Of a DNA stretch of 64,000 bases, positions 851-29,802 are shown one piece after another; position 1 is the first letter of the stretch, and each line of letters starts with the position of its first letter. The stretch comes from Oscillospiraceae bacterium (GTDB taxonomy: Bacteria; Bacillota_I; Bacilli_A; RF39; UBA660): the NCBI GenBank assembly GCA_963632935.1, contig CAVGWA010000001.1, positions 20,216 to 84,215 of the forward strand, written 5' to 3'. Below the pieces are notes generated by a model. It was not told the DNA's origin. It saw nothing but the letters and a program-made list of their open reading frames with translations, and did no database searches. Position numbers and translations under genes: made by a program.

Positions 851-946
851 TATGTGGAAATATGAAAAAAAATTACAATATCCTGTGAATATTAAGAAAA
901 AAGATTTAAATATGGCTAAATGTATTATGACACAATATGGTGGACC
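851..946 (+). other. cotJC: 5' segment of the interrupted spore coat gene cotJC (manganese-catalase family): MWKYEKKLQYPVNIKKKDLNMAKCIMTQYGGP. The frame then reads into phage DNA and stops at ~1003.
   Basis: Strong match to the conserved CotJC N-terminus (B. subtilis MWVYEKKLQYPVKV...EQYGGPDGELAA). The conserved sequence ends exactly at the att core. RBS GGGGG precedes the ATG at 851. Confidence 0.85.
935..945. repeat. attL core TATGGTGGACC, with putative crossover dinucleotide GG at 941-942.
   Basis: Identical 11-mer at 29329-29339. Phage-side flanks form an inverted repeat. Confidence 0.8.
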
Positions 947-1197
947 ACACACCAAAAAAGACATATATAAGGATAGAAAAAACTTTCTTTTTATACTTTC
1001 TTAAAAACTATGAAAAAAAATTTAATCAAAAGGAATATAATAAAGAATTTAACAAAAAACACTATAGGCAATTTAAAACTGAACTTCCAATTGCTGAAAA
1101 AGAAGAGATTGATAATTTTTTAAAGGAAATTAATATGAGTAAAGTTGAGTTTATTAGAAAAGCTTATGTCCTCTTAAAAACAGAATTCAAAAAATAA
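937..1197 (+). CDS. hypothetical small basic protein at the prophage left end, overlapping the attL core in another frame.
   Basis: ORF only. K/E-rich with no recognisable family. Followed by a strong hairpin terminator. Confidence 0.25.
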   Translation: MVDHTPKKTYIRIEKTFFLYFLKNYEKKFNQKEYNKEFNKKHYRQFKTELPIAEKEEIDNFLKEINMSKVEFIRKAYVLLKTEFKK

Positions 1198-1213
1198 AAA
1201 AGTAGCAAAATAA

Positions 1214-1250
1214 AAAAGGTAGTGATTTTTACACCACTACCTTTTTACTG
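1214..1250. terminator. bidirectional rho-independent terminator (GGTAGTGATTTTTACACCACTACC hairpin, A-run upstream and T-run downstream).
   Basis: Perfect 7-bp stem with flanking A/T runs, between convergent ORFs 937-1197(+) and 1271-2194(-). Confidence 0.6.
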
Positions 1251-1270
1251 TTCAATTTTTGAACGGAACA

Positions 1271-2194
1271 TTATTTCATTTGAATTGCGTCAATTTCTCT
1301 TCCATAGATCCCTGCATAACCATCATTTGTATTATCGGCTTTATGTATCCAAGGAAGCCATGAGCCACCTTTTGTATGTACTCTATAACTTACATAACCA
1401 TAGTCAGACCATATTTTAACGCCGTCAATAGTTTTGTTTATTATGCCACTATAAGAACTTCCATTGTTTGAGTTCTTTGCATATGTATCTGATTTAATTG
1501 TAGATAACCAAGAACCACCTTTTACATGCGTTAACATATAAATACAACCATTGACACATTTGGCTCTTATACCACCCATAGAATTGCCTAAATTACCAGC
1601 ATAACCATTATCATTAACAACTTCTGGTAACCAACATTTCTTGACATTATCATATGATTGGTAAGTAATATTTCCTGTGCAAGTTGGTTCAGAGTTTTTT
1701 GCAGAGTTTTCTGCAGAGTTGCCTAATTCTGCTCTAATCATATTTAAAAATCTATCCCAGCCCATATCTAAAGTACGATGTGGGCAATATTTTTTTGAAT
1801 AGTCTTGATGTTTTGTGACTTTATCAATACCCCAATCTCTTTCTTTTAAAAGTTGAGCAATTAGTTTTGCTGCGTTTTGTTCTGCTTTAATAAATCTATC
1901 TCCACCTGATTTAGAATAACAAATTTCAATAGATATACCTTCTTTATTACCTTTGCCGTTGCCATCACCTGCATTCCATGTGTTTCTATTAAATGGAATA
2001 CCTTGTACGGCTTCTTTATCATCAACAGCGATATGATAGGATACTTCATTATTGTTACTAATCATATATTTAATTTCATTATTAGCACTTGCGTCATTTG
2101 CAGTATTATGCACTACAATTCTTGTCGCATTCATACTATATGGACATTTATATTTATATTTACTATTATCTACTAACATTTGTCTTATTTCCAT
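1271..2194 (-). CDS. phage endolysin: N-acetylmuramoyl-L-alanine amidase (Amidase_2/PGRP-type) with C-terminal repeated GGSWL cell-wall-binding-like repeats.
   Basis: N-terminal RIVVHNTANDASA...YHIAVDD...GIPFNRNTWNAGDG motif block typical of amidase_2 lysins. Position is next to the holin at the prophage end. Confidence 0.8.
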   Translation of the reverse strand: MEIRQMLVDNSKYKYKCPYSMNATRIVVHNTANDASANNEIKYMISNNNEVSYHIAVDDKEAVQGIPFNRNTWNAGDGNGKGNKEGISIEICYSKSGGDRFIKAEQNAAKLIAQLLKERDWGIDKVTKHQDYSKKYCPHRTLDMGWDRFLNMIRAELGNSAENSAKNSEPTCTGNITYQSYDNVKKCWLPEVVNDNGYAGNLGNSMGGIRAKCVNGCIYMLTHVKGGSWLSTIKSDTYAKNSNNGSSYSGIINKTIDGVKIWSDYGYVSYRVHTKGGSWLPWIHKADNTNDGYAGIYGREIDAIQMK

Positions 2195-2195
2195 A

Positions 2196-2462
2196 TTATC
2201 CCTCTTTTCTTAATAAATTTTTAAGCATTTCATACATACCTGTAGATGCTAAACCACTTACCATGCCTGTTAATATTACATCTAAAGTTATGTTATGTAA
2301 ATTAGATACAACACTTAAGAATGTGCCTAAAACTAATACAATTAAGGGTATATATTTATTAAAGTCATTTGTATTAATTAAATTTTTAATAACATACCCA
2401 ACACATAAACAAATTCCTAAAATTACAACATTTACACTTTCGGTTAAAAAACTTAAATCCAT
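2196..2462 (-). CDS. phage holin (88 aa, predicted transmembrane segments, charged C-terminus).
   Basis: Small hydrophobic protein immediately upstream of the endolysin, with a 1-nt intergenic gap to the lysin. Confidence 0.7.
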   Translation of the reverse strand: MDLSFLTESVNVVILGICLCVGYVIKNLINTNDFNKYIPLIVLVLGTFLSVVSNLHNITLDVILTGMVSGLASTGMYEMLKNLLRKEG

Positions 2463-2463: not shown

Positions 2464-2784
2464 TTATCTACCTTCTTTCATTAACTTATCCCACCAGTCA
2501 TGGATATAGCTATTACCACCTAGACTGGTATATCTTTCAAAACATTCATATGCTCTTTGTTTTTCAATAGCACTTAGCTCCTGCTTATTTTCTATGTCCT
2601 TCAAAAATCTCACTAAATAATTTTTACATTGAGATTTATCAACTTCTTTTAAATCTTCTCTAATAGGTTCAAAGAGCTTATTTATTTGTTTTTTGAGCAC
2701 ATTACATATATATGCGACTGAGCCAATTAATGCACTTAAAAAAGCCAAGACAGTTGCGATTTGACCTAATGTTATTGTTTCCAT
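2464..2784 (-). CDS. hypothetical protein with N-terminal TM helix (lysis-module accessory or second holin component).
   Basis: N-terminal hydrophobic segment IATVLAFLSALIGSVAYI. Translationally coupled to the holin. Confidence 0.35.
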   Translation of the reverse strand: METITLGQIATVLAFLSALIGSVAYICNVLKKQINKLFEPIREDLKEVDKSQCKNYLVRFLKDIENKQELSAIEKQRAYECFERYTSLGGNSYIHDWWDKLMKEGR

Positions 2785-2959
2785 GTTTTTCCTCTTTCTA
2801 CTTTTTAAAATTTACCTCCGAAGTTTGCCTGAATTTCATTAATTACAGTATCCAAAGATTTATATTTTCCTGTTTCATTATTTTGCAGTGCAATCTCGTT
2901 TGCATTTAGTTTATTACCTTTAAAAAAGTTTTTAAATAATTTCATTATTTTTTGTGCCA

Positions 2960-3394
2960 TCATGCTACTCTTAACCAAAAATAAACGGCGTAAAATTTAG
3001 GCATATTATTATGTGCTTTAGAATCACCTGAAGTCTGTGTCGAAGTGGTACCTTCTGGATTGGTCCCATTCGCAGCCATTACAATATCACCAACTGACCA
3101 CATACTTACTCCAGTTCTTCCTGAAATTTGATGTGAATGTGATGGCATTTCATCAACTGTTAATGTGTGTGTGTTTTCGCCACCTGTAGTTTTTACTGGA
3201 TAGGTTTCACTAGCACTCATTAAGAATGTTTCTTCTTCTATTTTTTGCCACGTCGTTCCCTTATATCTTGCGTTAGGGTCTATATTATTTGTTGTAGTTA
3301 ATATATCTCCTACCATATAAGGACATACTAAGAATTCCATTTCTTCGCCGTCTATTTTCTTTTTCCATAAAGTGCTTGCTACTTTCATTAACAA
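2960..3394 (-). CDS. phage tail-collar fibre domain protein (likely receptor-binding tip).
   Basis: GGENTHTLTVDEMPSHSH motif is characteristic of the Phage_tail_collar / MdpB domain. Confidence 0.6.
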   Translation of the reverse strand: MLMKVASTLWKKKIDGEEMEFLVCPYMVGDILTTTNNIDPNARYKGTTWQKIEEETFLMSASETYPVKTTGGENTHTLTVDEMPSHSHQISGRTGVSMWSVGDIVMAANGTNPEGTTSTQTSGDSKAHNNMPKFYAVYFWLRVA

Positions 3395-3493
3395 ACACCT
3401 CCTAGAAGAGAGTTACTTAATAGAACTCCCTCCTTTCTTGTATTGTTTGACATATATATATTATAAGTAATATTTTCAATAAATAGTTTCATG

Positions 3494-4147
3494 TTATTCC
3501 TCCTCCACTTCAATAATCGTTGTATCGAAGATTAGTTTATCATTTATTTCATCTATTTGATTTTGTAAATTACCAGCAACGTCTGTTGATAATTGCCCCT
3601 TAACATTATCAAACCACGTAGTAAACCAAATATTGTATTGCTTAAAAATATCTTCAGTAGATAAACTTTGCACTGCTTGCACAACGTTACCACACTCGTC
3701 AGTAAATCTAGTATCAGTTATCTTATCAGTTGTTATTCTCGTAGTTCCAGTTGAAACCGTAATGTTCGCAAGTCTTAAATCATAAATATTTCCACTTCTT
3801 GTTAGTATTGGCTGGCCTGGTGTCGTGGCTGTTTGTCCTTCTAAAATCATTGCAGTAATATTTCTATCACTTAGATTTAATCTCAATATAACCGAATCAA
3901 TTCTATTTAATTCTTTATCTGCCTCGTCTATATCTAAAGTAAGTGATTCTGTATTTTCATAACTATATCCATTAATATTAGCTGTTCCTGCCGCAACAGA
4001 AACAGTCATATTATCGTTTGCACTTACTTTTAAAGAATTATTAAATATTCCATTTGTAAAAAACTTTGATAAAAAATCAGCAACATCACTGGCATCATAA
4101 ACCCTATCATTGTTTACTGAATTAAAGAATCCATATTTTTGTGCCAT
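3494..4147 (-). CDS. hypothetical phage tail/baseplate protein.
   Basis: Position between the Tal-like protein and the tail collar protein. No motif recognised. Confidence 0.35.
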   Translation of the reverse strand: MAQKYGFFNSVNNDRVYDASDVADFLSKFFTNGIFNNSLKVSANDNMTVSVAAGTANINGYSYENTESLTLDIDEADKELNRIDSVILRLNLSDRNITAMILEGQTATTPGQPILTRSGNIYDLRLANITVSTGTTRITTDKITDTRFTDECGNVVQAVQSLSTEDIFKQYNIWFTTWFDNVKGQLSTDVAGNLQNQIDEINDKLIFDTTIIEVEEE

Positions 4148-4163
4148 TTATATCATTCCTTTC

Positions 4164-6161
4164 TTATTCGCCATCCCAAGCACTTGAAAAAGCACTTCCA
4201 AAGGTTGGCTTAACTGTTATATTCCCATCTTCTATTATTTCTTCAACTTCTATTATTCTATATGAGGTTAATATTCCCCATTTATCCTTTTTGATATTAA
4301 CAATATCTCCTAAGTCCCATTTATCTTTATAATCACCAATGTTTAATGCGGTTACTTCTAAGTTAAATGTTCCTGTGCTTAATTTTCCTTCTCCAACGGT
4401 TTTTAATTTTTCTATATATTCACTTGATGATAGATTATTATTACTTAAAGATTTTTGATCACAAAATAATTCATATAAATCAAATCCTGTTTTACCTTCA
4501 TCAACTGTAGTTGTTATTCTTGCTGTATCTTCTCCAGTTCCACCAACTAAAACATAATTAACACTTGTTTTCTTTGAAATAACAAGTTTTCCCTGCTCTA
4601 AATTATAATTATCATCACTGAAAGCATATTGTTCATTTTCAGTTTGATTAACTGTCCTATCTTTTCCCTTATATACTTCAAACATATAAACCTTTGAATC
4701 AACATTAGGTACAATTCTTATTCCAAGGCCAGAGTATTCACTGAGTTTAAGCAAATAATCGTAAACGTTTTTATATGTACACTGAAAAGAAATTGGTTCT
4801 GAACTCATTGTTACTGTTTCAGTCTCCCATGCGTCTGTCAGTGGAGTCATAGCATTGACTATTGTGTTCATACCTTCAATTGAATTGCCTGTAAAGTTTA
4901 TTTTATTTTTAACAATTCTTCTTTCGAATAAACATGACAGAAATCTACCACTTATGGTTACTTCTTCATCTGTACTATCATCACTAAATTCTATCGTTTC
5001 AATAATACCCGCCTCGGTATAATTATTTCTCATAACTAAAATATCAGTATCAATAAATTTCATTATATAATCAGTAACTGGCAATACTATTTCAAATTCA
5101 CCAGCCTCAAAATATTTTCTACGCCATCTTAGACTAATAAAATAATCAATAATTCCAAGCATATTAAGTTCTTTATCAAAAAAGAACAAGGATGAATCTT
5201 CATCACCATCAGTAGTAAGTTCACGGGATAGATTTAATATATAAATAGGTATTGTTCCAGTTTCTTTATAATGCTCTGCTGTTATTACCATTACATTCTT
5301 CTCATTATTATAGGCTAATCCATATCTAAGACCTGCTGTGCCATTATCAATGTCAGTCCATGATACACCATCTATTGATTGCAATATAGTACCATTGTAG
5401 CCACAAGCAATATACGTTCCATTTGCATATCTAGACCTAATCAAATATGCATCAGTTCCAGTTTCTTGCTTTGTCCAGTTTATACCATTTGTTGAGGTTA
5501 AAATTGTTCCGTTATCTCCAGTAATTACAAACTGACCTTTACCATATGTTATACCAACAAGTTTTACTGTTGTTTCTGATACTCTTCTTATCCAATTGTC
5601 AAGATCTGTAGATGTAAATATTGAACCAGTTTCTCCAACTCTTACATAAGTTCCGTTGTAAAAATCGATGTCCATTTGATTAAGATTTTCACTAGATTCA
5701 ACAATTAATTGATGTTTTGTCCAGCTTATACCATTTGTACTTTCGTAAAACCAGTCTTCAGTTTTAGTTCTTATTTTTTTTCCGTCTATCGTCTTATACC
5801 AATAAATACCAAGTAATGCTACAAATCTATTATTTATAAATTTGACACTATTACTAGAAATTCCAAAAGTTTCACCTGTATTTATCTTAATTGGCGTCCA
5901 ATTAACACCATCAGTAGATCGATAAAACCAAGTATCAGTACTTGTACTACTTTCACCTGTTATTATAAAAACACCATTGCCATATACAATATTGCTTGGT
6001 TTTAAATAATCTTCATTTAATTGATATTCAGTCCAATTTTCTAAGTTTTCTGATACACATACTTTTGCAGGGCTCTTTGATAATAAATAGTATTTCCCAT
6101 CAACGTATGCAATACCTCGACCACGACCTAATATACCACTATCTTTTTCTATTAATTTCAT
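4164..6161 (-). CDS. phage tail-associated protein (Tal/prophage-tail endopeptidase family position). The N-terminal half has repeated G..Y..G..G.I..S.DG..W (BNR/beta-propeller-like) units.
   Basis: 665 aa ORF directly after the Dit-like gene downstream of the tape measure. Internal ~45-aa repeats visible (GVNWTP, GISWTK, GINWTK, GVSWTD). Confidence 0.5.
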   Translation of the reverse strand: MKLIEKDSGILGRGRGIAYVDGKYYLLSKSPAKVCVSENLENWTEYQLNEDYLKPSNIVYGNGVFIITGESSTSTDTWFYRSTDGVNWTPIKINTGETFGISSNSVKFINNRFVALLGIYWYKTIDGKKIRTKTEDWFYESTNGISWTKHQLIVESSENLNQMDIDFYNGTYVRVGETGSIFTSTDLDNWIRRVSETTVKLVGITYGKGQFVITGDNGTILTSTNGINWTKQETGTDAYLIRSRYANGTYIACGYNGTILQSIDGVSWTDIDNGTAGLRYGLAYNNEKNVMVITAEHYKETGTIPIYILNLSRELTTDGDEDSSLFFFDKELNMLGIIDYFISLRWRRKYFEAGEFEIVLPVTDYIMKFIDTDILVMRNNYTEAGIIETIEFSDDSTDEEVTISGRFLSCLFERRIVKNKINFTGNSIEGMNTIVNAMTPLTDAWETETVTMSSEPISFQCTYKNVYDYLLKLSEYSGLGIRIVPNVDSKVYMFEVYKGKDRTVNQTENEQYAFSDDNYNLEQGKLVISKKTSVNYVLVGGTGEDTARITTTVDEGKTGFDLYELFCDQKSLSNNNLSSSEYIEKLKTVGEGKLSTGTFNLEVTALNIGDYKDKWDLGDIVNIKKDKWGILTSYRIIEVEEIIEDGNITVKPTFGSAFSSAWDGE

Positions 6162-6171
6162 CTAACCACCT

Positions 6172-7047
6172 CTATACTGCCTCATAATAGTTATAATAAC
6201 TAATAGTACAATCTAAGTTGGCTGAACCACTATCTGCATTTGTCACATATTTATTTACACCATTCGGTGCCTGTAAGAACTTTGTACCAAATACCAACGC
6301 ATTTGTTATATTACTTTCATTTCCATTAGAATCAATATGAGTAATAGTTTTTTCATTGTTATAGGTAGTAACAACTATTTGCTCGCCTAACTTTAAAGTA
6401 TAATTTAGTTTCATGATTTCATTAGTTCTGGTGTTTGTTAATGATGGATTTACTACTTCACCATTTGCTATAAATGTGATAGTCAAACCATACGATATAT
6501 GTGAATTATTTTCAATTTCAACTGTAGTAACATTATTTTGACTACCAAATTCAATACCAGAAACAGGTATTTCAAGTGGAAAACTAAATAATTTATCCCA
6601 ATTACTAAGTGTAGCTATTGTTTCTTTTGAATCCATAAAATAAGGACTTGGACATAATAAATTAATTGTTGCGTAAGTGTAATTGGCTTTTCTAGTTAAG
6701 GTTACCTTTTCAACGTAATAATTTATCTTTCTTTCTATATAGCCTTCATAATAATAGAGTGTACCTTTATCTTTTAATGGGAAAATATTATATATTTTTT
6801 GCTTATTTGTAATTAAGTTTTCCCCATCCTTAAATGCAATTACCAAACTAATACTTCGTTGATTAATCGATGTTCCTATATATGACACACCAGTACCGAA
6901 TGCACTTTTTATAGTAGCAACACTTCCCGCATATTCATGAATTCCAGAATATGAATCTAAAAAAAATGGAAATGAATAGTTAAATGATAATTTATATCCA
7001 TAACTGTTTTCACATATTATTTTTTTGGTTCTTGAATTATAAGCCAT
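6172..7047 (-). CDS. phage distal tail protein (Dit-like).
   Basis: 291 aa ORF immediately downstream of, and translationally coupled to, the tape measure gene. Canonical siphovirus order is TMP-Dit-Tal. Confidence 0.5.
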   Translation of the reverse strand: MAYNSRTKKIICENSYGYKLSFNYSFPFFLDSYSGIHEYAGSVATIKSAFGTGVSYIGTSINQRSISLVIAFKDGENLITNKQKIYNIFPLKDKGTLYYYEGYIERKINYYVEKVTLTRKANYTYATINLLCPSPYFMDSKETIATLSNWDKLFSFPLEIPVSGIEFGSQNNVTTVEIENNSHISYGLTITFIANGEVVNPSLTNTRTNEIMKLNYTLKLGEQIVVTTYNNEKTITHIDSNGNESNITNALVFGTKFLQAPNGVNKYVTNADSGSANLDCTISYYNYYEAV

Positions 7048-9353
7048 TATCTAGCACCCCCATATTTTAATTTATATAATTGATATTCTTGTCTAAGAAG
7101 TCTTACATTCTCAGCAGGTGATGTATATTTAGAGTAATTGTTGATAACTGGATTGAATTCAATGTTGTTTTTATTATCATTTGTATTGTTACTGTAACGT
7201 TCTAACATTAAGCTATTAGCATTAGGGTTAATCAATGGATTTAATGAGTTTTTTACACCATAATTGAGTGCTTTCATTGCTCCAGTAGTATTTTTCAATA
7301 TATCATCAAAAGATAATTTATTTGCCATATTTTGGGCCATCTTATCGGTTGCATTTTCTAATAAGTAACTTGATTGGTTAATTCCTTTAACCATACCTTT
7401 AACCATGTCAGGCATCCATGTTTCATAATCTCTTAGTGGTCCTATATCAGGTCTTGAAAAGTGTAAGAAATTTTTGATTTTGTCGGCAACACTCTTTGCT
7501 GCATCTCCAACTTTTCCTATCATATTTTTAATACCATCAATAAAGCCTTGAATCATGTCCTTACCCCAATCGAGAGCCATTTTAGGTAATTGACCCATCT
7601 TTTCTTTAATCGCACTAATAACTTTTAATATTCCAGTCCCAACTGCACTATTCATACTTATTATTCCAGATATTAAAGATCCAATTATCTTAATTCCAGC
7701 CTCAAATATTGTAGGTAAATTTGATTTGATTGCCGCAACTATTTTTAATACGATTGTTGGTATTGCCTCAACTATTTTAGCAAGTGAATCTGGAGCAGTT
7801 AATCCCTCTACTAAGCCCACAATAAGTTGTATTCCTGCATCAATTATTAAATCTATATTATCAATAATTGTATCTACAATATTCAATATGCAATCAACTA
7901 TTTGTGGTATTAATGTAGGTAACATTTCACCAAGTGAAATAGCTAATTGTGAAATAACTTGTATTAGTGTGTTTATTATAGTAGGAAGATTAGTTAATAA
8001 TAAATTAGCGATGTTTTGTATTAAATTTGTAATAAGTGGAATTAATTTAGGGAGCAACTCTGGAATCATCTTTATAATTTCATCTAGCATTTGGCTTATG
8101 ACAGGTATATATTTATCAGACATTTGAATCAAATGATTTGCAACATTAGTTGCAAAAGTTCCTAACTGTTTTAATAGATTATTCATTTCTTCACTAATGT
8201 CTTCTCCGCTTACCATCTTTTTAATCATGTCTTTTGCAGAATTCATTACTGGTGTTATACCTTCTAAAAGAGGTGTCATTATTTCTGCACCAACTCTTGA
8301 CAATGCACTTTTTAAATTAGCTAAAGATGACGTAAAGGTTTGTCCAGCATTCTGAGCAGCTCCTCCTAAACCTTGTTCCATTGCTTTTGAAAATTCTTCG
8401 AACCCTACTTTTCCAGCACTAACAAGTTTACTAACCTCGGATGTGCTAATTCCCATAGTTTCAGATAACATTTGTAAAATTGGTATGCCAGAATCAGATA
8501 ACTGATTTAATTCTTCCCCAGTAATTTTTCCGTTTGCAGCTATTTTATTAAATATAGAACCCATATCTTCCATAGAACGGCCTGACACTTGAGATGCGTC
8601 TGCTACAAGTTTTAAAGCACTTGTCATATCTTCTCCCTCTTTAATACCTGCAGCAAATAATCCACTTGCTACTGTAGCAGCACTATCCATAGAAAAAGCA
8701 GTGCCATCAACCGAGTCACTGACATTTTGCATTATTTCATCAAGCTGTTCTGTAGAATCAACAAATGTAGACATTTTAGCTTTAGCATTTTCCAAATTTA
8801 ATGCTCTATCAATACCACCAGAAATAACCATATTCCCTATTGAATTAGATATAGATTTAATTTTTCCTACTATGTTATCAAATACTCTAATAATTGCTTC
8901 ACTAGCAAGATTTGCTTTTATTAAATCTCCCACTTTGATAGCACTCTGACCCACTTTATCCATTTCATTAGTTATTGGTGTTAAATTGCCAGATTTGATA
9001 CTATCCAGTTCTTTATTCATCTTAACTAAATTACTTTGTGCCTTAGCAATTTCAATTGATAAATTAGTATACTGTTGTTTCTGCTCTTCTGTTAAATTAG
9101 AATACTCTCCTAATTGTGATTGAGCAGTTTTTAGCTGTTTTAATCTTTCAACGGTAGCACCTATGTTTGCAGTTAATAATTTTTGTTTGGTTGCTAATGT
9201 ATCAGTATTTGTAGGGTCTAATTTCAATGCTCTATTCAACTCCCAAAGCCCTGAGTTGGTTGAATAAACTACTTGATTAACATTTTTTAATGATTCTTCT
9301 AATTTAGATGTATTACCACCAATGTCTATAGTAATACCTTTTAAACTCGCCAT
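7047..9353 (-). CDS. phage tail tape measure protein (768 aa).
   Basis: Long alpha-helical/low-complexity protein with coiled-coil N-terminus and repeated IP..I segments. Lies between the major tail protein and Dit. Confidence 0.8.
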   Translation of the reverse strand: MASLKGITIDIGGNTSKLEESLKNVNQVVYSTNSGLWELNRALKLDPTNTDTLATKQKLLTANIGATVERLKQLKTAQSQLGEYSNLTEEQKQQYTNLSIEIAKAQSNLVKMNKELDSIKSGNLTPITNEMDKVGQSAIKVGDLIKANLASEAIIRVFDNIVGKIKSISNSIGNMVISGGIDRALNLENAKAKMSTFVDSTEQLDEIMQNVSDSVDGTAFSMDSAATVASGLFAAGIKEGEDMTSALKLVADASQVSGRSMEDMGSIFNKIAANGKITGEELNQLSDSGIPILQMLSETMGISTSEVSKLVSAGKVGFEEFSKAMEQGLGGAAQNAGQTFTSSLANLKSALSRVGAEIMTPLLEGITPVMNSAKDMIKKMVSGEDISEEMNNLLKQLGTFATNVANHLIQMSDKYIPVISQMLDEIIKMIPELLPKLIPLITNLIQNIANLLLTNLPTIINTLIQVISQLAISLGEMLPTLIPQIVDCILNIVDTIIDNIDLIIDAGIQLIVGLVEGLTAPDSLAKIVEAIPTIVLKIVAAIKSNLPTIFEAGIKIIGSLISGIISMNSAVGTGILKVISAIKEKMGQLPKMALDWGKDMIQGFIDGIKNMIGKVGDAAKSVADKIKNFLHFSRPDIGPLRDYETWMPDMVKGMVKGINQSSYLLENATDKMAQNMANKLSFDDILKNTTGAMKALNYGVKNSLNPLINPNANSLMLERYSNNTNDNKNNIEFNPVINNYSKYTSPAENVRLLRQEYQLYKLKYGGAR

Positions 9354-9440
9354 AATTTCACCTCTTTACCAATACTAAAAAAACTACTTTTTAAAGTAGT
9401 TATAAGTAGTCTTTTTACTACTCTAAAGAGTAGCATTAAA

Positions 9441-10007
9441 TTAAACTGTTTTTTCATATACAGAACTAAAGAAACTATCATATGCAGTTTTATTTTCTTC
9501 TGTTTCTTCTAAGAACACTTTAACTCTATTATCACTAATTCTTGCATTAGCAGTAATATTTAAAGTATCAGTGGTTGGCTCTTTTGATGTTTCAATAGTT
9601 TGACCTGAAGTTGATGGTCTTTGAGCAGATACGTTATAGAACCAAAATTTACGATTTGATTTATCACCATTGATTTGGAAACCTAATGCAAAATCAGATA
9701 TAGTATCATCAACGCTCTCTATTAATGCGCCGTTTGAATCTGATGTTTCGCCCAAAATTTGAGTTCTAAATTCATCAGTTATCATAGCAATTTCTAATGA
9801 ACCACTATAACCTTGATTGGCATATTCACTAAAATATTTAGTATTATCACCATAAAAATCAGTGCTTTCACCTTCTGGATCAAGTGTTAGGTTTACCGCA
9901 CCAGGTATTTTAAATGGATCACCATAAGTAACACCATCACTAGAATTAGCAGTTATTTTAGCAATATGTACATTACTTAATCCAAATTTAACTTTATTTT
10001 TTCCCAT
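9441..10007 (-). CDS. phage major tail protein (phi13/TP901-1-like).
   Basis: N-terminus KVKFGLSNVHIAKI typical of major tail proteins. Size 188 aa. Position upstream of the tape measure. Confidence 0.6.
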   Translation of the reverse strand: MGKNKVKFGLSNVHIAKITANSSDGVTYGDPFKIPGAVNLTLDPEGESTDFYGDNTKYFSEYANQGYSGSLEIAMITDEFRTQILGETSDSNGALIESVDDTISDFALGFQINGDKSNRKFWFYNVSAQRPSTSGQTIETSKEPTTDTLNITANARISDNRVKVFLEETEENKTAYDSFFSSVYEKTV

Positions 10008-10018
10008 ATTTTTTCCTC

Positions 10019-10330
10019 CTATATTTCATAAAAATTATGATAAATTTTTTCGTCTTCATCCCATATTTCATCTGTTATGTCATATGGAATATTATTTTTT
10101 GTTAACAATTCTTCAATAGCCTGTTCTAATACAATATCTTTTTTTTCTGTTATAAGTTCTATTTCAAAAGAAGAAGGCCTATAATATACCTTACCATCAG
10201 CTTTAAATGTTTCTGTACTGGATTCTCTATAGACAACAAAAGGTGGAGTTACATTCTGTTGTACATTAAAGTGATCATAAGCTACTGGTATATTCAATTC
10301 ATTCAATAATTCATATATTTTTTTATGCAT
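10019..10330 (-). CDS. hypothetical tail-completion / neck protein.
   Basis: Gene order only. Confidence 0.3.
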   Translation of the reverse strand: MHKKIYELLNELNIPVAYDHFNVQQNVTPPFVVYRESSTETFKADGKVYYRPSSFEIELITEKKDIVLEQAIEELLTKNNIPYDITDEIWDEDEKIYHNFYEI

Positions 10331-10331: not shown

Positions 10332-10718
10332 TTAACTCTTCTTTCTTATACCATTTTCTACATTTTTCACATATTCAGATATACATTGTTCTGCGACAGG
10401 TGCAATATGTACAATTGGCTTAGTCTTACCACCATTTCTTGTAACGTGTCCATTTTCAAGCAAGTGGGTTAATTGCCAGTCAGTTTTATTATGAATAGTG
10501 CAATAGATTTCACCTTTGCCAACTTCTTTTTTTATTCTCCAACCTTTAGCATATCTTCCACGATTTTTTGTTGCTCTTTTATTCTTTGGTGAAGTTGCTT
10601 TTAGTGTCTTAACACCCTCTTTTGCAATCTTTATTGTTTCCTCTTCAATTAGTGCTTGAATATCATCACAATAACCAGCAAGAATATCATTTATATCTAA
10701 AATAGAAGAGTTAGCCAT
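10332..10718 (-). CDS. HK97 gp10-like head-tail joining protein.
   Basis: Size (128 aa) and position in the head-tail connector cluster. Confidence 0.35.
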   Translation of the reverse strand: MANSSILDINDILAGYCDDIQALIEEETIKIAKEGVKTLKATSPKNKRATKNRGRYAKGWRIKKEVGKGEIYCTIHNKTDWQLTHLLENGHVTRNGGKTKPIVHIAPVAEQCISEYVKNVENGIRKKS

Positions 10719-11025
10719 TTATACCAATCTTTCTAGAGCATACTAAAACAATATCAAACTTGTTTTTAGGTTCTACTGTCCTAATAACCTGATATCGTTC
10801 ATTATTCCACTCTAATTCAAATTCACCATTGTAATTTAGTCTCTTAAGAACAAACTCACAATTTGGTGTTAATCCAACTTCTATTGCACTATAGTATTCT
10901 CCAGTTTTTACACTTTGTTTTTTAGCAAAACACTTTTGTTTGGTTTCAGAAGTGGGAAGATAATTGCCAATATCATCCTGCTTCTTAACTTGATTTATTA
11001 AATAAATGATTTCACTATATTCCAT
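10711..11025 (-). CDS. phage head closure / head-tail adaptor protein.
   Basis: Gene order. 104 aa. Confidence 0.35.
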   Translation of the reverse strand: MEYSEIIYLINQVKKQDDIGNYLPTSETKQKCFAKKQSVKTGEYYSAIEVGLTPNCEFVLKRLNYNGEFELEWNNERYQVIRTVEPKNKFDIVLVCSRKIGING

Positions 11026-11029
11026 ATAA

Positions 11030-18972: not shown

Positions 18973-19650
18973 TTAATTCCGTAATTTTTTAGGTTTTTGA
19001 TGACCGATGAAGATAGCCTCACGATCTGCCTCTGCATCATCAATTCCCCAGTGCACGTAACGCATCGTGTAGTTGTAATCATCGTGATTATACATCTTCA
19101 TAAGTGTTTCAGGTTTACCACCATGAAGAATATACATATAGCCAAATGTTTTACGCAGACTATGTAATCCAAACTTAAAATCCATATTCACTGCATTTCC
19201 AGCTTTTTGAATAACTCTGCGTGCTTGTTGCTGAGTTATTGGAAGTATTACATTAGTTGTCTTTCCTTTGTACGTATTTATCGTTTTTTGTCCCATAAAT
19301 AGATAATCATTTGGCTTTAAATCAAACTCCTTGATATATTTAAGTACTTCATCGTGAAACTGCTTATTCATTCTGAAATTCTGCATCTTACCAGTTTTTA
19401 ACTCCTTAATTGATACATAACCTTTTTCTAATTGAAACACCTTTAATTGAAGCAAATTTTCAGCTCTAAACGCAGTATTGAATCCAATTAAACAGATCAT
19501 ATAATTACGATATGCTTGATAATACTTAATTTTTGACTTGGCATGCTCAACTTTAGACCACAGATTATCCATTAAAGCCTGCAGCTGTTTCTCGTCTTTA
19601 ATTGGTAAGGTTTCCTGTTGTCCTCCAAACAAAGCTATTCTTCTACCCAT
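18973..19650 (-). CDS. small tyrosine recombinase (225 aa, catalytic domain only, FimB/FimE-sized) with its own AGGAGG RBS.
   Basis: Conserved R (TAFRAENL), HSLRKTFG (H-x-x-R) and a C-terminal Y (TMRYVHW). GC content is visibly higher than that of flanking phage DNA. Confidence 0.7.
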   Translation of the reverse strand: MGRRIALFGGQQETLPIKDEKQLQALMDNLWSKVEHAKSKIKYYQAYRNYMICLIGFNTAFRAENLLQLKVFQLEKGYVSIKELKTGKMQNFRMNKQFHDEVLKYIKEFDLKPNDYLFMGQKTINTYKGKTTNVILPITQQQARRVIQKAGNAVNMDFKFGLHSLRKTFGYMYILHGGKPETLMKMYNHDDYNYTMRYVHWGIDDAEADREAIFIGHQKPKKLRN

Positions 19651-20992: not shown

Positions 20993-21412
20993 TTAATCCA
21001 CCTTTGGCCATCTTATTGTGTCTATTCCTTGCTGTTCGCACTCTTGAATAAGCCCACTCATCAAGAATGCAAATTCGCTTGTATTCAGTTCGTGACTTGG
21101 AGTATATATCATGTATATATCCCACGCATTTCCGTTTTTAACTTTAGAACTTAACTTTTCATAATATTTTATTCCTCTTATCAAAGTATTGTGTGGCACA
21201 CAAACTTGATATCTCACAGAATAATCTTTCAACATTTTAAAATGTAGTTCTTCTATATTCGTTTTTAATACTTTTGCTAATTCGTATAATAATTTCCAAT
21301 ATTTTTTATTTTGTTCTTTATTTCTAGCGTTTTTATACTCTTTTAATTCGTATAATTTATCTTTGTCAAGCTTTATTAATTCACTAGCTAATTTCTCGGG
21401 TTTTGCTATCAT
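20993..21412 (-). CDS. hypothetical phage protein (replication-module position).
   Basis: ORF immediately downstream of SSB. Confidence 0.3.
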   Translation of the reverse strand: MIAKPEKLASELIKLDKDKLYELKEYKNARNKEQNKKYWKLLYELAKVLKTNIEELHFKMLKDYSVRYQVCVPHNTLIRGIKYYEKLSSKVKNGNAWDIYMIYTPSHELNTSEFAFLMSGLIQECEQQGIDTIRWPKVD

Positions 21413-21414
21413 AA

Positions 21415-21831
21415 CTACTCCAAGAAATTATCGTCAATATTTACTTGCTCTCCAAAATCTGCGAATGGGTCCTCATCTTTCTTTTCGACTTGTTCAGTTT
21501 TCCTTGCAGATTGTAAAAATGATATTCTTTCCACATTGACTTCTGTAATGTATTTTGTAGCACCTTGAGTATCAGTATATCTATTTCCAGTTAATCTTCC
21601 TTTTACGACTATTAAATCGCCTTTTTTTACATATTTGTTAACTGTTTCAGCTGTGTTGCTCCAGCATCGACAATTTATAAAATCTGTATCATATTCGCCA
21701 TGTTGATTTTTAAAATTGCGTGTAACTGCTAATGTAAACGTTGCATAGCTTTTTCCTGTACTCGTTTTTTTTAATTCAATATCTTTTGTTAATCTTCCTA
21801 ACAATATTCCTTCATTAAGCATTTTTTTCAT
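21415..21831 (-). CDS. ssb: phage single-stranded DNA-binding protein.
   Basis: OB-fold N-terminal region (LLGRLTKDIELKKTSTGKSYATFTLAV...VVKGRL) and acidic C-terminal tail ending DDNFLE. Confidence 0.75.
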   Translation of the reverse strand: MKKMLNEGILLGRLTKDIELKKTSTGKSYATFTLAVTRNFKNQHGEYDTDFINCRCWSNTAETVNKYVKKGDLIVVKGRLTGNRYTDTQGATKYITEVNVERISFLQSARKTEQVEKKDEDPFADFGEQVNIDDNFLE

Positions 21832-22155
21832 CTCCTAATTCTTTTGATAATTTTTCTAACTCTCTAATTAAAATTGGCTTATAATGTGATTTTGACATAT
21901 CCTTTTCTCCCTTTTTTATTTTTTCGACTAATTCTTGATTATTCATATTAACCACCTACATAATTACCTTTATCATCATGCGTTATTTCAATTATTTTAG
22001 GAACAATGTTATAAACTTCATCTTCTTTAATTCCGTTAATAACATTGCATATATAATCAGTTGTTTCTACTAAATATTCAGATACATCTTTGATACAACC
22101 TATAAAATCACATTTATTGCTTTTCTTATTGATACAGCATACATTTCCTCTATAA

Positions 22156-22464
22156 TTATAGATTTACAATTAATGGTAATCTTTTTAAATTAGGTTTTAT
22201 TTGTTTAACATTTATATTAATATCAAGCTTATATTTAACATAAAATTGTTGTAAAAGCACCAGTACATCTGCTATTTTTTCTTCAATACGATGTCTTAGA
22301 TATGTTTCCATATCAACATTCAAACTATAAAGTTCATAATCCTTAATCGCATCTAATAATCCTTGAATTTCTTTACGTAATTTATTCATTTGATTTGATT
22401 TTCCATAATTATTAAATATTTTTAATAGTTTTTCTTTCATCGTTTTTTCCACACTTTCTTGCAT
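22156..22464 (-). CDS. hypothetical phage protein.
   Basis: ORF only. Confidence 0.25.
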   Translation of the reverse strand: MQESVEKTMKEKLLKIFNNYGKSNQMNKLRKEIQGLLDAIKDYELYSLNVDMETYLRHRIEEKIADVLVLLQQFYVKYKLDININVKQIKPNLKRLPLIVNL

Positions 22465-22599
22465 AAATTACTATGTTTTTCAAAATATTCATAGTTAGTA
22501 GTACAATTATGATCTATTGAGCACATACATATTTCAAAGAGAAAAAAGTAAAAAAATAAAATTCCTAGAATAAACACAAACATCATAACTTTTTTCATT

Positions 22600-22899
22600 T
22601 TAACCTTCTTCCAATTGCCCAAAATTTTTTATATATTCATCAACTGAAGCTATTTCAATCATTAAATTTTTAACATATTCCTCAGAAACGACTTCAATTT
22701 TATTTAAATCTTTAAAGTAAACATTCTCACATTTTCCAACAAAATTTAAGTATGTTCCTTTTTTTGTTTTATAAATCTTTGCGTTAAAATATTGATCAAT
22801 TATTCCAAAAAAAGTTGAAACAGGAATTTTCTGTTGATATTCTAAAATCACATCACACTTATCAGTATCATAAATTTTGTTTTCTATAATTTTTTTCAT
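22600..22899 (-). CDS. hypothetical phage protein.
   Basis: ORF only. Confidence 0.25.
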   Translation of the reverse strand: MKKIIENKIYDTDKCDVILEYQQKIPVSTFFGIIDQYFNAKIYKTKKGTYLNFVGKCENVYFKDLNKIEVVSEEYVKNLMIEIASVDEYIKNFGQLEEG

Positions 22900-23143
22900 T
22901 TTTTCTCCTTAAGTCATTTAATTGTTTAGTTAAGCCTTCAATTTTGCTGGCGTTTTGGCGTCTTTGCATCTCTTTTATTTTTAGCTTGTATTGTAATTCT
23001 TTGTTTTGTTTGTTAATCAAAATTATTGCATCATTTAAACTATCAAATGCTTTTTTGATTTCAAAAAATTTCTTTTGGATTTTTCCAAATTCATTTTCAA
23101 AATATATTAAATCTTTATATTTTTTATTGCTTATTATTTTCAC
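22868..23143 (-). CDS. hypothetical coiled-coil phage protein.
   Basis: ORF only. Confidence 0.25.
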   Translation of the reverse strand: MKIISNKKYKDLIYFENEFGKIQKKFFEIKKAFDSLNDAIILINKQNKELQYKLKIKEMQRRQNASKIEGLTKQLNDLRRKNEKNYRKQNL

Positions 23144-23156
23144 TTTATTCCCCTTT

Positions 23157-23441
23157 TCATTCTTTAATTTTAAAATAATTATTTACTAAATTAAGATCAG
23201 TCGAATTGATAATTTTATTTTGGCCTTGAAATTTGATGCTAAAACTTTCACCATTCTTGCTATATATTTCAAATTTTTTTACTTTATTTTTCTTATCAAT
23301 CACTTTTGTTCTAGTTACCATTGCAAAGTGCCAAAACTTTCGTTGACTAATAAAATATCCAATATCTTGTCTCCACTGTTTTTGATTAAAATCAATGATA
23401 TTTTTTTTAGCAATCCATGAACGATTATATTTTCTAGCCAT
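23157..23441 (-). CDS. hypothetical phage protein.
   Basis: ORF only. Confidence 0.25.
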   Translation of the reverse strand: MARKYNRSWIAKKNIIDFNQKQWRQDIGYFISQRKFWHFAMVTRTKVIDKKNKVKKFEIYSKNGESFSIKFQGQNKIINSTDLNLVNNYFKIKE

Positions 23442-24177
23442 AGTTACATCTCCGTTCTAAATCTTTTATTTCTTCAAAAGTTGCTTTATCTTCTGCTATT
23501 TCTTTTCCATACCAATCAGGGCCATTTTCATTTTGTTTATATTTGTTTTTTTCTAACATACATTCCTTTAATGTTTTGTAACCTTTATCATGCCATGAAT
23601 TAATAATGGTAGTTGTATAATTTAAACCTCTAGCTCCATTAAGTAATGTCTTTTCAACAGCATAATTAATCACATCATCATCAAACCATTCTTTCCAATT
23701 CATCAGTGTTTGATATTCAACAGGAGATAATGTTCTACCAAATTGTTCTTCACAGTAGCTGAAGCAATTTTTTTCTTCTTTAGTAGTTTCTTCTTTTATA
23801 TCCTTATCCTTATCTTTATCCTTATCCTTATCCTTTTCCTTATCCTTATCGGGTTTTTTTAGGTTATTAGGTTTTAAATAGGTTTCTTCTTTAGGTTTTT
23901 GTTTTTTAGGTCTACCACCCTTTTTACCATTTAATTTAGAGGTTTCTGACCTTTTGTCATAATTTTCTTTATCTCTTTTTAGGTTTCTTTTTATGAATGA
24001 AAAAGCCATTTTTGTAATACCGTTTAATTCTTCATCTTCAAAACCTAATTTTTCATATTTAAACATTGCTCTAACCAATTTACCTAATTCTTCATTTGAT
24101 AAATCTTCTAACAATTCTTCATAGTCATAGTACATCAAAAATGATTTTTTGCTTTCTGTTTCTTCTTTTATCATCAC
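23434..24177 (-). CDS. DnaD-domain replication protein (phage replisome organiser) with internal (KD)n low-complexity linker.
   Basis: C-terminal FGRTLSPVEYQTLMNWKEWFDDDVINYAVEKTLLNGARGLNYTTTIINSWHDKGYKTLKE matches the DnaD C-terminal domain pattern. Position at the head of the early operon. Confidence 0.6.
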   Translation of the reverse strand: MMIKEETESKKSFLMYYDYEELLEDLSNEELGKLVRAMFKYEKLGFEDEELNGITKMAFSFIKRNLKRDKENYDKRSETSKLNGKKGGRPKKQKPKEETYLKPNNLKKPDKDKEKDKDKDKDKDKDIKEETTKEEKNCFSYCEEQFGRTLSPVEYQTLMNWKEWFDDDVINYAVEKTLLNGARGLNYTTTIINSWHDKGYKTLKECMLEKNKYKQNENGPDWYGKEIAEDKATFEEIKDLERRCNYG

Positions 24178-26744: not shown

Positions 26745-27272
26745 ATGAATAATAAAATTGATATTGCCTGTAATAGGTACAAACTTATAAAAAATAGTTT
26801 ACACCCTAAATTTTGTACTATTGATGAATGGTTAGACAAAGAAAGTAAAATTTTTGAGAGTGAATTATCCTCCAAACCAAGAACTTATAAAAAATTAAAA
26901 AGAGGTCAGATTATCAAAGTGGACTTTGGTATAAATATTGGTTCTGAATTATGTTATACTCATTTTGCAATAGTTTTAAATAAAAATGATAGCATTTACA
27001 GTGATAATGTAACTGTAATACCAATTACCTCAAAAAGGGGAAATAATAGAATTGCACTTGGGAAAATATTGCATAATGTATATCCAAATTCATTAAAATA
27101 TAATTTGAATTGTTATGCCAACGTAACACAAATAAAATCAATTAGCAAATCCAGAATATTTCAAAATAATAAAAATTACGTTTGTATTAACGATATACTA
27201 GATAAAATAGATAATGCAATTTTAACAACATTTACTAATGTTAATAAAAATAAAACAAAAATAGGTGTATAA
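26745..27272 (+). CDS. PemK/MazF-like fold protein (putative toxin/abortive-infection cargo) with ~50-aa N-terminal extension. No adjacent antitoxin evident.
   Basis: RGQIIKVDFGINIGSE...HFAIVL...NVTVIPITSK parallels the MazF/PemK signature (GD.V.VDF.P..GSE...RPA.VLS...v.v.PiTs). Confidence 0.4.
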   Translation: MNNKIDIACNRYKLIKNSLHPKFCTIDEWLDKESKIFESELSSKPRTYKKLKRGQIIKVDFGINIGSELCYTHFAIVLNKNDSIYSDNVTVIPITSKRGNNRIALGKILHNVYPNSLKYNLNCYANVTQIKSISKSRIFQNNKNYVCINDILDKIDNAILTTFTNVNKNKTKIGV

Positions 27273-27799
27273 AAATTTGACTTTAGAATAAAAATATGGT
27301 ATAAGTAAAGTAATCATTTAATTGATTATATTTAGTCCTTAACGGACACCTCAGTTTCTTTTGAAACTGTACTTGGCTTTTTACAAGCACTTAAGATACC
27401 ATATTTGGTATCTTTTATTTTATATAAACACATATAAAATTCTAAAAAAAGAAATTTACTAAACATTAATAATCAATGTCTAGTAAATAAATCAAAACTA
27501 TATAAAGTTCAATATTTAATCGATAGCTTTGTAATAGTTTATAAAAATCATCAAATTTCATAAAAACCTCCTAACGGAGAAAATATTATAATGTAAATTT
27601 AAAGATAATTAAAAACTCTCTAGCTGGAACTAGAGAGCAAATGAAAAATTTAAGCCACCAACTTAGCAAAAATAGGATTGAAATCAATACTATAATTGCA
27701 TACTATAACATACGATGCATATAAAATACAATACATATGCTACAATACAATTTTTCTATATAATTGTATCATAAATTTATTAATAAAGGAAGTGCTATA

Positions 27800-29308
27800 A
27801 TGAAAAAACAAATAATATCTGAATTTATTGATTGGTTAAAAAAAGAAAACTTATCTATAACCAATTTAAATGCAAAAAATACAATTGCTATTTATATTAG
27901 AGTATCAACTAACAAGCAAGAAGAATTAAGCCCATTAAGCCAATTAAAAGAGATATATAAATATGCTGTAAGAAATAATTATCAAATTGATATAAATCAA
28001 ATTTATGTAGAAGAGGAAGGTATAAGTGGTAAACATGCTGAAAAACGTAATGAATTTCAAAGTATGATTGCACACGCTAAATCTAAAGAAAAAGAATTTG
28101 ATACTATTGTTGTGTGGAAATTTTCAAGATTTGCAAGAAACCAAGAAGAAAGTATTGTTTATAAGAATATGCTTAAGAAAAACAATGTTAACGTTGTAAG
28201 TGTATCAGAACCTATCATAGATGGTCCTTTTGGCAGCCTGATAGAGCGAATTATCGAGTGGATGGATGAATACTACTTAATACGTCTTTCAGGTGAAGTT
28301 ACACGTGGAATGACCGAAGCAGCCAATCAAGGTCGTGTTCTTAGTACAGCACCGTTTGGATATCGTAATGAAAATAAAAAATATATAATTCATGAAGAAG
28401 AGGCGAAAATAGTTAAATGGATTTTTGAAACTTTTGTAGATGGAAAAATGAGCCAAATTGAAATGGCTAGACATATTAATAATCTAGGATTTAAAACCAA
28501 AAGGGGAAGTAAGTTTGAAAATAGAACTATTTCATACATTTTATTAAATCCGACGTATACTGGTAAAATACGATGGACGCCTAATGGAAAACTCACAAGA
28601 GAAGAACTATATAATAATACTAAATCAATTATAACAAAGGGAACACACGAGGCAATTATTAGTGAAGAATTATTTAAAAAGGCAAATGAAAGACTAAAAG
28701 AAAACAGGAAGTTCATGCACTCACATGAACATCACACAAAAATATGGCACTGGATGAAAGGTTTAATAAGATGTGAGTGTGGAAGGACATTTGTTAGAAC
28801 CAGTGGAAAATTACGCTGTAATGGGTATAATAAAGGTACTTGTACAGCATCTGATAGAATAGACTATAATGAAGTAGAATGCCTTGTTTTGGAACAATTA
28901 AAAAGAGATAGCACGCATAAAATAGCAATTGAAAATATAGTACAATCAAAAAAAGAGTCTAAAAAGACAAATGATCTAGAATATGAGGCACTTAAAAATT
29001 TAGAAAAAAAAGAAGAAAGAATAAAGGAAGCTTATCTTAATGGAATAGATTCATTAACTGAATATAAATATAATAAACAAAAGATACAAAAGGAACGAGA
29101 AATATTATTACAAAAAATAGAAGAAAATACAGAAAAAAAAGAAGATATTTCTATTGAAGAAAAGATAAGTGAAAACTTAAAAACCATCTACGAAACGCTT
29201 ACTGATGATAATGTAGATATAAAAAAGAAGTATGATATTGCCCATAGATATATAAACGTAATTACTTATAAAAGCGGCGTTTTATACATGAAATATAACG
29301 ATTTTTAG
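27800..29308 (+). CDS. large serine recombinase (prophage integrase, SpoIVCA/SprA-like class). Probable start at MKKQII (27800); the ORF is open from 27764.
   Basis: N-terminal resolvase domain AIYIRVSTNKQEE...S with catalytic Ser. Recombinase and zinc-ribbon regions and C-terminal coiled coil. Ends 20 bp from the attR core. Confidence 0.9.
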   Translation: MKKQIISEFIDWLKKENLSITNLNAKNTIAIYIRVSTNKQEELSPLSQLKEIYKYAVRNNYQIDINQIYVEEEGISGKHAEKRNEFQSMIAHAKSKEKEFDTIVVWKFSRFARNQEESIVYKNMLKKNNVNVVSVSEPIIDGPFGSLIERIIEWMDEYYLIRLSGEVTRGMTEAANQGRVLSTAPFGYRNENKKYIIHEEEAKIVKWIFETFVDGKMSQIEMARHINNLGFKTKRGSKFENRTISYILLNPTYTGKIRWTPNGKLTREELYNNTKSIITKGTHEAIISEELFKKANERLKENRKFMHSHEHHTKIWHWMKGLIRCECGRTFVRTSGKLRCNGYNKGTCTASDRIDYNEVECLVLEQLKRDSTHKIAIENIVQSKKESKKTNDLEYEALKNLEKKEERIKEAYLNGIDSLTEYKYNKQKIQKEREILLQKIEENTEKKEDISIEEKISENLKTIYETLTDDNVDIKKKYDIAHRYINVITYKSGVLYMKYNDF

Positions 29309-29328
29309 GGTTTTTGTCCTTTTTGGTG

Positions 29329-29339
29329 TATGGTGGACC
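29329..29339. repeat. attR core TATGGTGGACC, with putative crossover GG at 29335-29336.
   Basis: Identical to 935-945. The cotJC reading frame resumes through it. Confidence 0.8.
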
Positions 29340-29802
29340 CGCTGGTGAGCTTGCGGCTGCGTTTCAATATTTAGATCAACGTTATAATATGCCTGATGAT
29401 CGTGGTAAGGCTTTACTTACTGATATTGGTACTGAAGAGTTAGCTCATGTTGAGATTATTTCAACTATGGTGTATCAACTTATGAAAGGTGCGACTAAGG
29501 ACGAACTTTTAAAGGCTGGCTTGGATGGAATGTATGCTCAATTTGGAAGGGATTTATTTCCTTCTGATGCGATGGGAAATCCTTTTAATATGAGTTATAT
29601 TAAAGTTTCTGGTGATTATATTGCTGATTTGGAAAGTGATATGGGAGCGGAACAAAGAGCGCGAGCTACTTATGAACATTTGATGGATTTGACCGATGAT
29701 GCTGATATTTTGGGACCACTTTCTTTTTTAAGACAAAGGGAAATTATTCATTATCAAAGATTTAAGGAATTGCGTGATTATTATTTAAGTATGAAAAAAT
29801 AA
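29330..29802 (+). CDS. cotJC: 3' segment of cotJC (manganese-catalase-family spore coat protein). Conserved sequence resumes at ...YGGPAGELAAAFQYLDQRYNMPDD. The ORF-track Met at 29314 is fortuitous.
   Basis: Strong similarity to CotJC/Mn-catalase (GELAA..YL.QRY, EEL.H.E.I). The reading frame across the reconstructed attB is continuous with 851-946. Confidence 0.85.

Follow-up and report, generated by a model that had tools for sequence, protein, structure and literature searches.

A 64-kb stretch of DNA (the window, to whose positions all coordinates below refer unless a locus is named) carries the spore coat gene cotJC in two parts, separated by an insert of 28,393 bp (947-29339) that, judged by its genes, is a complete-looking temperate siphovirus. 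The reading preferred here, with a probability of roughly 0.85, is that this phage was put into cotJC by its own large serine integrase. The figure covers the element and its mode of integration only, and not programmed excision, which is weighed separately below. The features that carry the reading are the following, where L001 (CAVKUP010000005.1) is a related locus with an uninterrupted cotJC.

290..321, plus strand: predicted cotJ promoter of sigmaE/K type (CCTATAC, 16-nt spacer, CATAGAATA), ~21-29 nt upstream of the cotJB ATG
342..842, plus strand: cotJB, 166 aa (Pfam CotJB PF12652 at 3.7e-25, domain at residues 92-165)
852..946, plus strand: cotJC 5' fragment, codons 1-32, 100% identical to L001 CotJC residues 1-32
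936..946, no strand: attL core TATGGTGGACC, at the breakpoint against L001
27800..29308, plus strand: large serine integrase, 502 aa (PF00239 Resolvase, PF07508 Recombinase and PF13408 Zn-ribbon, all above cut-off)
29329..29339, no strand: attR core TATGGTGGACC, an 11-mer identical to the attL core
29340..29802, plus strand: cotJC 3' part, codons 33-185 (153 codons)
attB, reconstructed: ATATGGTGGACCCGCTGG
attP, reconstructed: includes TTTTTGGTGTATGGTGGACCACACACCAAAAAAG

Reconstruction of the split gene

The open reading frame (ORF) of the cotJC 5' fragment runs on host DNA up to 946 and on phage DNA afterwards, ending at a stop at 1004. Joined in silico, the two halves give 558 nt, in frame, with a 185-aa product in which TQYGGP is followed across the junction by AGELAAAFQYLDQRY (a longer stretch of the product reads TQYGGPAGELAAAFQYLDQRY). 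The product matches Pfam Mn_catalase PF05067 over residues 1-175 (2.9e-54) and aligns colinearly with the solved Mn catalases 6j42 and 1jku, gap-free over the junction. It scores 115 bits against the 350-bit cut-off of the NCBIfam equivalog for full-length manganese catalase, which fits the short 185-aa CotJC type and not a canonical catalase. By these matches, and by its position directly downstream of cotJB, the joined gene is identified as CotJC of the Mn-catalase-like type, a predicted spore coat protein. No second copy of cotJC was found within the window. The earlier note on this DNA, made from the letters alone, had joined the halves at the common 11-mer to obtain an uninterrupted CotJC of Mn-catalase type; the Pfam match, the structural alignment and the L001 gene bear this out. 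Its coordinates for the split are right within one base, the 5' fragment starting at ATG 852 and not at 851.

Unoccupied site and attachment sites

In a scan of one genome per species, relatives of the joined CotJC were found encoded at 361 loci, and in the best 80 of these, which were examined, cotJC is uninterrupted. The L001 locus is 99.3% identical to window 1-946 and 99.5% identical to window 29329-33799, with the 11-bp core as the exact overlap of these matches. It is an unoccupied attB in a near-identical, conspecific genome, and with such flanks around an empty site the insertion is taken to be recent and precise. Related genomes with an uninterrupted cotJC had been proposed as a check on the split, and L001 holds exactly that gene.

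Around a central GG, 20 of 24 inverted-arm positions match in the reconstructed attP, against 9 of 24 in attB; the attP sites of sister phages show 15-21 matches of 24. Such a contrast in symmetry between attP and attB is typical of large serine integrase sites. The attB spans the invariant TQYGGPAGE codons, the most conserved codons of cotJC. At the right end, the stop codon of the serine integrase lies 20 nt before the attR core, and a large serine recombinase 20 bp from the right junction, as claimed at the outset, is thereby confirmed both in its domains and in its distance.

In the proposed mechanism, the integrase would recombine an attP of ~50 bp, with near-palindromic arms around the central GG, with the attB in cotJC, presumably by a cut at the central dinucleotide and subunit rotation as in the known mechanism of large serine integrases. 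Integration would leave codons 1-32 on one side of the phage, along with cotJB and the mother-cell-type promoter, and the other 153 codons on the far side; precise excision would restore cotJC. Lysogeny would be held by a cI-like repressor, and excision is expected to need a directionality factor. Sporulation may be a further trigger, with excision in the mother cell then rebuilding cotJC as SPbeta rebuilds spsM.

An integrase family with two spore-gene targets

A protein search returned a clade of ~40 integrases, 50-93% identical to the window integrase. P0001 (93% identical) adjoins the cotJC 3' part in four metagenome contigs (L081, L083, L084 and L085); in two others (L082 and L086) it is followed by the core, a small ORF and the lysin, an attP junction exactly where predicted. 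Contigs of these sister phages are 31-39 kb long. P0003 (67% identical) occurs in attP form (L087), and integrases of 60%, 56%, 54%, 53% and 50% identity all adjoin the cotJC 3' part in different host species, the last also being found in attP form (L258). The same cotJC codon is used repeatedly by relatives of the window integrase across several host species. The attB is thus seen for the window species itself (L001), and attP for sister phages with integrases 93%, 67% and 50% identical.

Scans of viral and metagenome contigs added relatives of 42-49% identity, and 141 loci had enough sequence past the integrase gene to be informative. About 35 of them adjoin cotJC, in either orientation. Another 75 adjoin a second gene, always interrupted at the same position (...CPNWMT / QWGSKYL...), and the remaining loci show attP forms or other contexts. 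Most relatives of 42-48% identity sit in this second gene (among L098-L255, e.g. L099, L102 and L177), next to either half. The joined halves match PDB entry 9h68_A, 'spore cortex-lytic enzyme pre-pro-form', colinearly at 2e-127, which identifies the second target gene as sleC. This large integrase family of gut metagenomes is thus almost dedicated to cotJC and sleC (~110/141 loci). A shallow literature search turned up no published case of a prophage in sleC.

At one locus (L248, 1724-6056), cotJA, cotJB and the cotJC 5' fragment lie on the minus strand, and the integrase gene and cotJC 3' part on the plus strand, 3.7 kb apart. The junctions there are proper attL-like and attR-like sequences, but inverted; either a segment carrying the prophage has flipped or the metagenome was misassembled at this point.

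Gene content of the prophage

Lysis, tail, head, packaging, replication and lysogeny modules were all found open in PHROGs and Pfam scans, in agreement with the earlier note, which had read everything between the cotJC halves as a full temperate phage. Besides the serine integrase, the following features were assigned, by PHROGs unless another basis is given.

1271-2194, minus strand: amidase endolysin (lysis cassette 1271..2462)
2196-2462, minus strand: holin
2464..10330, minus strand: tail module including fibre/tail proteins
4164-6161, minus strand: minor tail protein
6172-7047, minus strand: Dit
7047-9353, minus strand: tape measure
9441-10007, minus strand: major tail protein
10019-10330, minus strand: tail terminator
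10332..17406, minus strand: head, connector (neck, adaptor proteins) and packaging module
11317-12594, minus strand: major head protein
12596-13183, minus strand: maturation protease
13457-14947, minus strand: portal
14944-16629, minus strand: large terminase
17065-17406, minus strand: HNH protein
18973..19650, minus strand: tyrosine-recombinase-like gene, 225 aa (phrog_216 at 4.7e-34; PF00589)
20993..24177, minus strand: replication/recombination genes
20993-21412, minus strand: NinB-like
21415-21831, minus strand: SSB
23434-24177, minus strand: DnaD-like loader
25170-25418, minus strand: cro-like helix-turn-helix (HTH) regulator, divergent from the cI-like gene
25469-25441, minus strand: strong sigma70-like site in the cro-like/cI-like divergent region
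25540-25956, plus strand: cI-like HTH regulator, divergent from the cro-like gene
26745..27272, plus strand: PemK/MazF-like toxin-domain protein (Pfam PF02452), in the lysogeny module

The serine recombinase had been put forward as the only integrase candidate, which is not so, given the tyrosine-recombinase-like gene at 18973-19650. This gene is internal, short and away from the att sites, and it is present at a comparable internal position in related phages; for these reasons it is not taken as the integrase. The form of the att sites is moreover that typical of serine integrases, and it is the serine integrase clade that tracks the cotJC site.

The region before the integrase gene (27273-27799) is AT-rich, non-coding and, at 527 bp, unusually long. 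It contains terminators at 27393-27414 (plus strand) and 27638-27615 (minus strand). A decamer upstream of the integrase gene, ATTGTATCAT, is common to relatives just 43% identical, and the region around it may hold a regulatory site that has been conserved, or else a small antisense RNA.

Promoters and excision signals

In 79 related loci, two blocks stand out from an otherwise poorly conserved sequence ahead of cotJB: CC(C/T)ATAC and CATAnnnTA, which are 16 nt apart and 26-29 nt before the ATG. The pattern AC-N15-17-CATAnnnTA lies at this place in 58 of the 79, against 0.6 expected from shuffles, a count that is inflated by sequence relatedness, although the neighboring bases have drifted apart freely. 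Of the 58 matches, 55 have a 16-nt spacer. We take this pattern to be the B. subtilis sigmaK consensus, which is close to that of sigmaE. It argues for cotJ as a mother-cell gene in the window lineage. A strict match to the motif at 59976 has no gene downstream and was treated as chance.

The earlier note had also proposed a search for a sigmaE/K-dependent promoter and a directionality factor. The former was found, conserved, at the host cotJ operon; neither was found in the prophage. Across the integrase family, the motif CATATTGTA with AC 15-17 nt upstream occupies a fixed place before the integrase gene in 17 of 134 regions, against 3.3 expected. It is confined to distant relatives and is absent before the window integrase, which speaks against programmed excision, and the enrichment may reflect only common descent.

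Two observations concern the cotJ genes themselves. The first ~90 residues of the window CotJB (window 342-617) precede the CotJB domain and include a stretch, LYDVYNGFIRGNMFPNLF, that by eye is like the CotJA motif IYDVDKAFCVGTIFAELN of L248. A cotJA-cotJB fusion could be present in the window lineage; Pfam gave no CotJA match for this N-terminal part. On the phage side of attR (window 29314-29802), in-frame TTG and GTG codons are available, and the stretch from the integrase gene to the 3' part of cotJC shows no terminator and no evident ribosome-binding site. With such start codons and no terminator, an N-terminally truncated CotJC could arise by read-through from the integrase gene; it would have 162 aa and keep the Glu of the conserved GE motif just past the split point.

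Passive or programmed excision

Several points count against the reading of a phage that entered cotJC by its own integrase and would rebuild the gene on leaving. The exact window integrase has no record elsewhere in public assemblies, so that the activity of the window copy is judged from its relatives, and the attP contigs are equally explicable by ordinary lytic induction. Within the prophage, the host-type promoter motif has 6 matches against 5.9 expected, none of them before the integrase gene or any small ORF. Pfam and PHROGs scans of all small prophage ORFs gave no family match to a directionality factor or excisionase; recombination directionality factors are not known to share a common fold, so this missing match says little. 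According to C. difficile data quoted in PMC11222575, spore formation can do without cotJC-type genes, and with such genes dispensable in model organisms, selection for programmed excision may be weak.

Passive insertional inactivation has close to an even chance of being the whole story. Here cotJC would serve as a 'safe harbour', being both conserved and dispensable; lysogens would sporulate without CotJC or with an N-terminally truncated form, and only departure of the phage on lytic induction would restore the gene. Large serine integrases are generally known to use intragenic sites commonly and without any developmental role, and the position of attB on the most conserved cotJC codons is as expected of a phage selecting for host range; the non-essential nature of cotJC-type genes in C. 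difficile and the lack of a sporulation signal in the promoter motif scan of the window phage point the same way. The restriction of the family to two spore genes is, however, hard to explain by conservation alone, and the retention of cotJC in genomes of 1.3-1.5 Mb (uninterrupted in all of the best 80 of 361 loci) also speaks against a passive role. If excision is passive, the case is one of ordinary prophage insertion.

About equally likely, and held here tentatively at a little under even odds, is a developmentally programmed reconstitution of cotJC by excision specific to the mother cell. The near restriction of the integrase family to cotJC and sleC favors it; several clostridia require sleC to germinate, and its passive inactivation would therefore be costly. 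So do the strong conservation of cotJC in these small genomes, the CATATTGTA motif in part of the family, and an architecture shared with SPbeta in spsM and skin in sigK, where a serine integrase stands at the element end inside a mother-cell gene (PMC4191935, PMC5499854). The window phage itself showed neither a sporulation promoter nor a directionality factor in the motif, Pfam and PHROGs scans, it lacks the CATATTGTA motif, whose family enrichment may be relatedness, and the observations fit lytic induction equally well.

A decaying, immobile remnant with cotJC permanently inactivated is improbable: the small left-end ORF is without the promoter and start codon of its sister phages and the element measures 28.4 kb against sister-phage contigs of 31-39 kb, but all essential modules are uninterrupted ORFs, the att cores are identical and the attP arms well preserved, and flanks 99.3-99.5% identical to the unoccupied genome point to recent insertion.

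The small left-end ORF

The left end of the prophage, between attL and the lysis genes, holds two further features.

1012..1197, plus strand: small accessory ORF at the left prophage end (61-aa conserved part, by eye ribbon-helix-helix)
1213..1246, no strand: bidirectional terminator separating the small ORF from the lysis cassette

The small ORF is co-oriented with cotJB and the cotJC 5' fragment, and is 97% identical to a 67-aa gene of the sister phages that is preceded by a TTTACA-17-TATAAT promoter of its own. The window copy has lost this promoter and the start codon to a deletion of ~215 bp, and its frame now stays open as far back as ATG 937, within the att core. A weak hairpin lies between the cotJC 5' fragment and the ORF, and the strong terminator follows it. 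The protein has no Pfam match and a weak PHROG match. The phage group carries variable small genes between attP and the lysis cassette, reading away from attP. Once integrated, these genes stand right behind cotJB and the cotJC 5' fragment, on the same strand and unshielded by any strong terminator, and would be read from the mother-cell-type cotJ promoter.

A run of eight A (A8) at 1013-1020 directly follows ATG 1010, and A9 would restore an in-frame start at 1010. An assembly error in the homopolymer, a frameshift mutation or a slippage site could each account for it.

There is an outside chance that the small protein is the directionality factor and is expressed by read-through from the host cotJ promoter, so that integration itself would couple excision to the mother cell. 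With its own promoter and start lost, host read-through would be the sole source of expression, and a directionality factor made in this way would relieve the phage of any need for a sporulation promoter of its own. The evidence against the idea is considerable: the small ORF is found only in the closest sister phages, the locus being variable in other relatives, and where a relative has integrated the other way round, transcription from the cotJ promoter would run antisense to its integrase gene. If true, it would mean that one serine integrase family makes competence for coat formation (cotJC) and germination (sleC) phage-dependent in many uncultured gut spore-formers.

Host lineage and other features of the window

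The related loci belong to uncultured gut 'Bacilli' or 'Tenericutes' metagenome-assembled genomes of ~1.3-1.5 Mb, including Candidatus Coprosoma and Firmicutes bacterium CAG:822. Ca. Coprosoma corresponds to GTDB genus CAG-822 of order RF39 (PMC8035907), for which spore formation has been predicted from gene content and not observed (PMC10868615). The window host is an uncultured RF39-like gut Bacillota, probably spore-forming. In other hosts with related prophages, cotJC adjoins spoIID, an M23 peptidase gene, spoIIID and mbl. The window also encodes a SpoVT homologue.

40919-41443: SpoVT homologue (AbrB-type N-terminus and Pfam SpoVT_C; TIGR02851 at 4e-38, below cut-off)

After the SpoVT homologue, a T-box leader (41467-41654) stands in front of a methionyl-tRNA synthetase gene. 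A ComK homologue (60058-60507, minus strand; PF06338 at 8e-40) lies between ORFs 58799-59914 and 60608-61729, which by position and size we take to be recF and dnaN, near the presumed replication origin. A non-coding stretch of 1.25 kb (53140-54395) separates the signal recognition particle RNA (53043-53136, minus strand) from an 823-aa ORF (54395-56866) that is presumably gyrA, by position and size only. This stretch holds a 620-bp tandem duplication, 95% identical, and ~8 copies of the perfect palindrome ATGTTTCACGTGAAACAT, most of them followed by TGTGGATTA, one mismatch from a DnaA box.

Comparison with known systems

Gene-intervening prophages in sporulation genes, such as skin and SPbeta, are a known paradigm studied almost only in cultured Bacillus and Clostridium. 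The window prophage extends it to an uncultured, genome-reduced RF39-like gut lineage with predicted sporulation, for which the conserved cotJ promoter is independent sequence evidence of a working mother-cell program. The family survey suggests that phages in the gut may often control functions of the spore coat and of germination, and it provides a collection of naturally occurring attP/attB pairs of serine integrases.

SPbeta is a phage of ~134 kb, against 28 kb for that of the window. Integrated into spsM of B. subtilis by the SprA integrase, with SprB as directionality factor, it is likewise an active-looking temperate phage with a terminal large serine integrase, and likewise sits in the coding sequence of a mother-cell spore-envelope gene whose frame is restored by precise excision. 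For SPbeta, sporulation-specific excision and a directionality factor under sigmaE/K control have been demonstrated (PMC4191935, PMC5499854), whereas no SprB-like gene was found in the window prophage, and its target gene, phage and host lineage (RF39-like) are different. The architecture of skin and SPbeta that the earlier note had recognized is indeed present, with a serine integrase at the junction, precise att sites and a complete-looking phage in a spore gene.

The skin elements in sigK (B. subtilis SpoIVCA; C. difficile CD1231/CD1234) and phiS63 in C. perfringens sigK also split a sporulation gene by a serine-recombinase element. The skin elements are defective, whereas the window element looks complete; phiS63, at 33.6 kb close in size to the window phage, is a functional siphovirus (PMC3442830). 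Late sporulation depends on sigK, so that excision is obligatory there, in contrast to cotJC, which encodes a coat component dispensable in model species. Other published targets of intervening elements are spoVFB, spoVR, gerE and yabG (PMC10747680). The elements concerned, yin in yabG of Clostridium botulinum (PMC10747680), vfbin in spoVFB, vrin in spoVR and gin in gerE, are of the same class and use a serine recombinase. Their excision and circularization have been measured; they are mostly defective or minimal, and their targets are others. The A118-type prophage in comK of Listeria (active lysogeny) resembles the window prophage in its serine integrase, intragenic insertion and a gene restorable by excision, but there the trigger is intracellular growth and not sporulation, and excision is reversible and not confined to a terminal cell.

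To our knowledge, hosts of RF39 type were not available in 2013. The suggestion that cotJC is an undescribed target does not stand: as cited in a 2021 preprint, Abe et al. 2013 (Mol Microbiol 90:415) already listed it as a phage or transposon integration target, and the cotJC-interrupting elements noted in their in-silico survey would share their target gene with the window prophage. The accessible portions of the text and supplements of the integrative-element survey by Mageeney et al. 2020 contain no mention of cotJ or catalase. As a target, cotJC is not new; the novelty lies in the host lineage, in a phage that looks complete and in the pattern across the integrase family.

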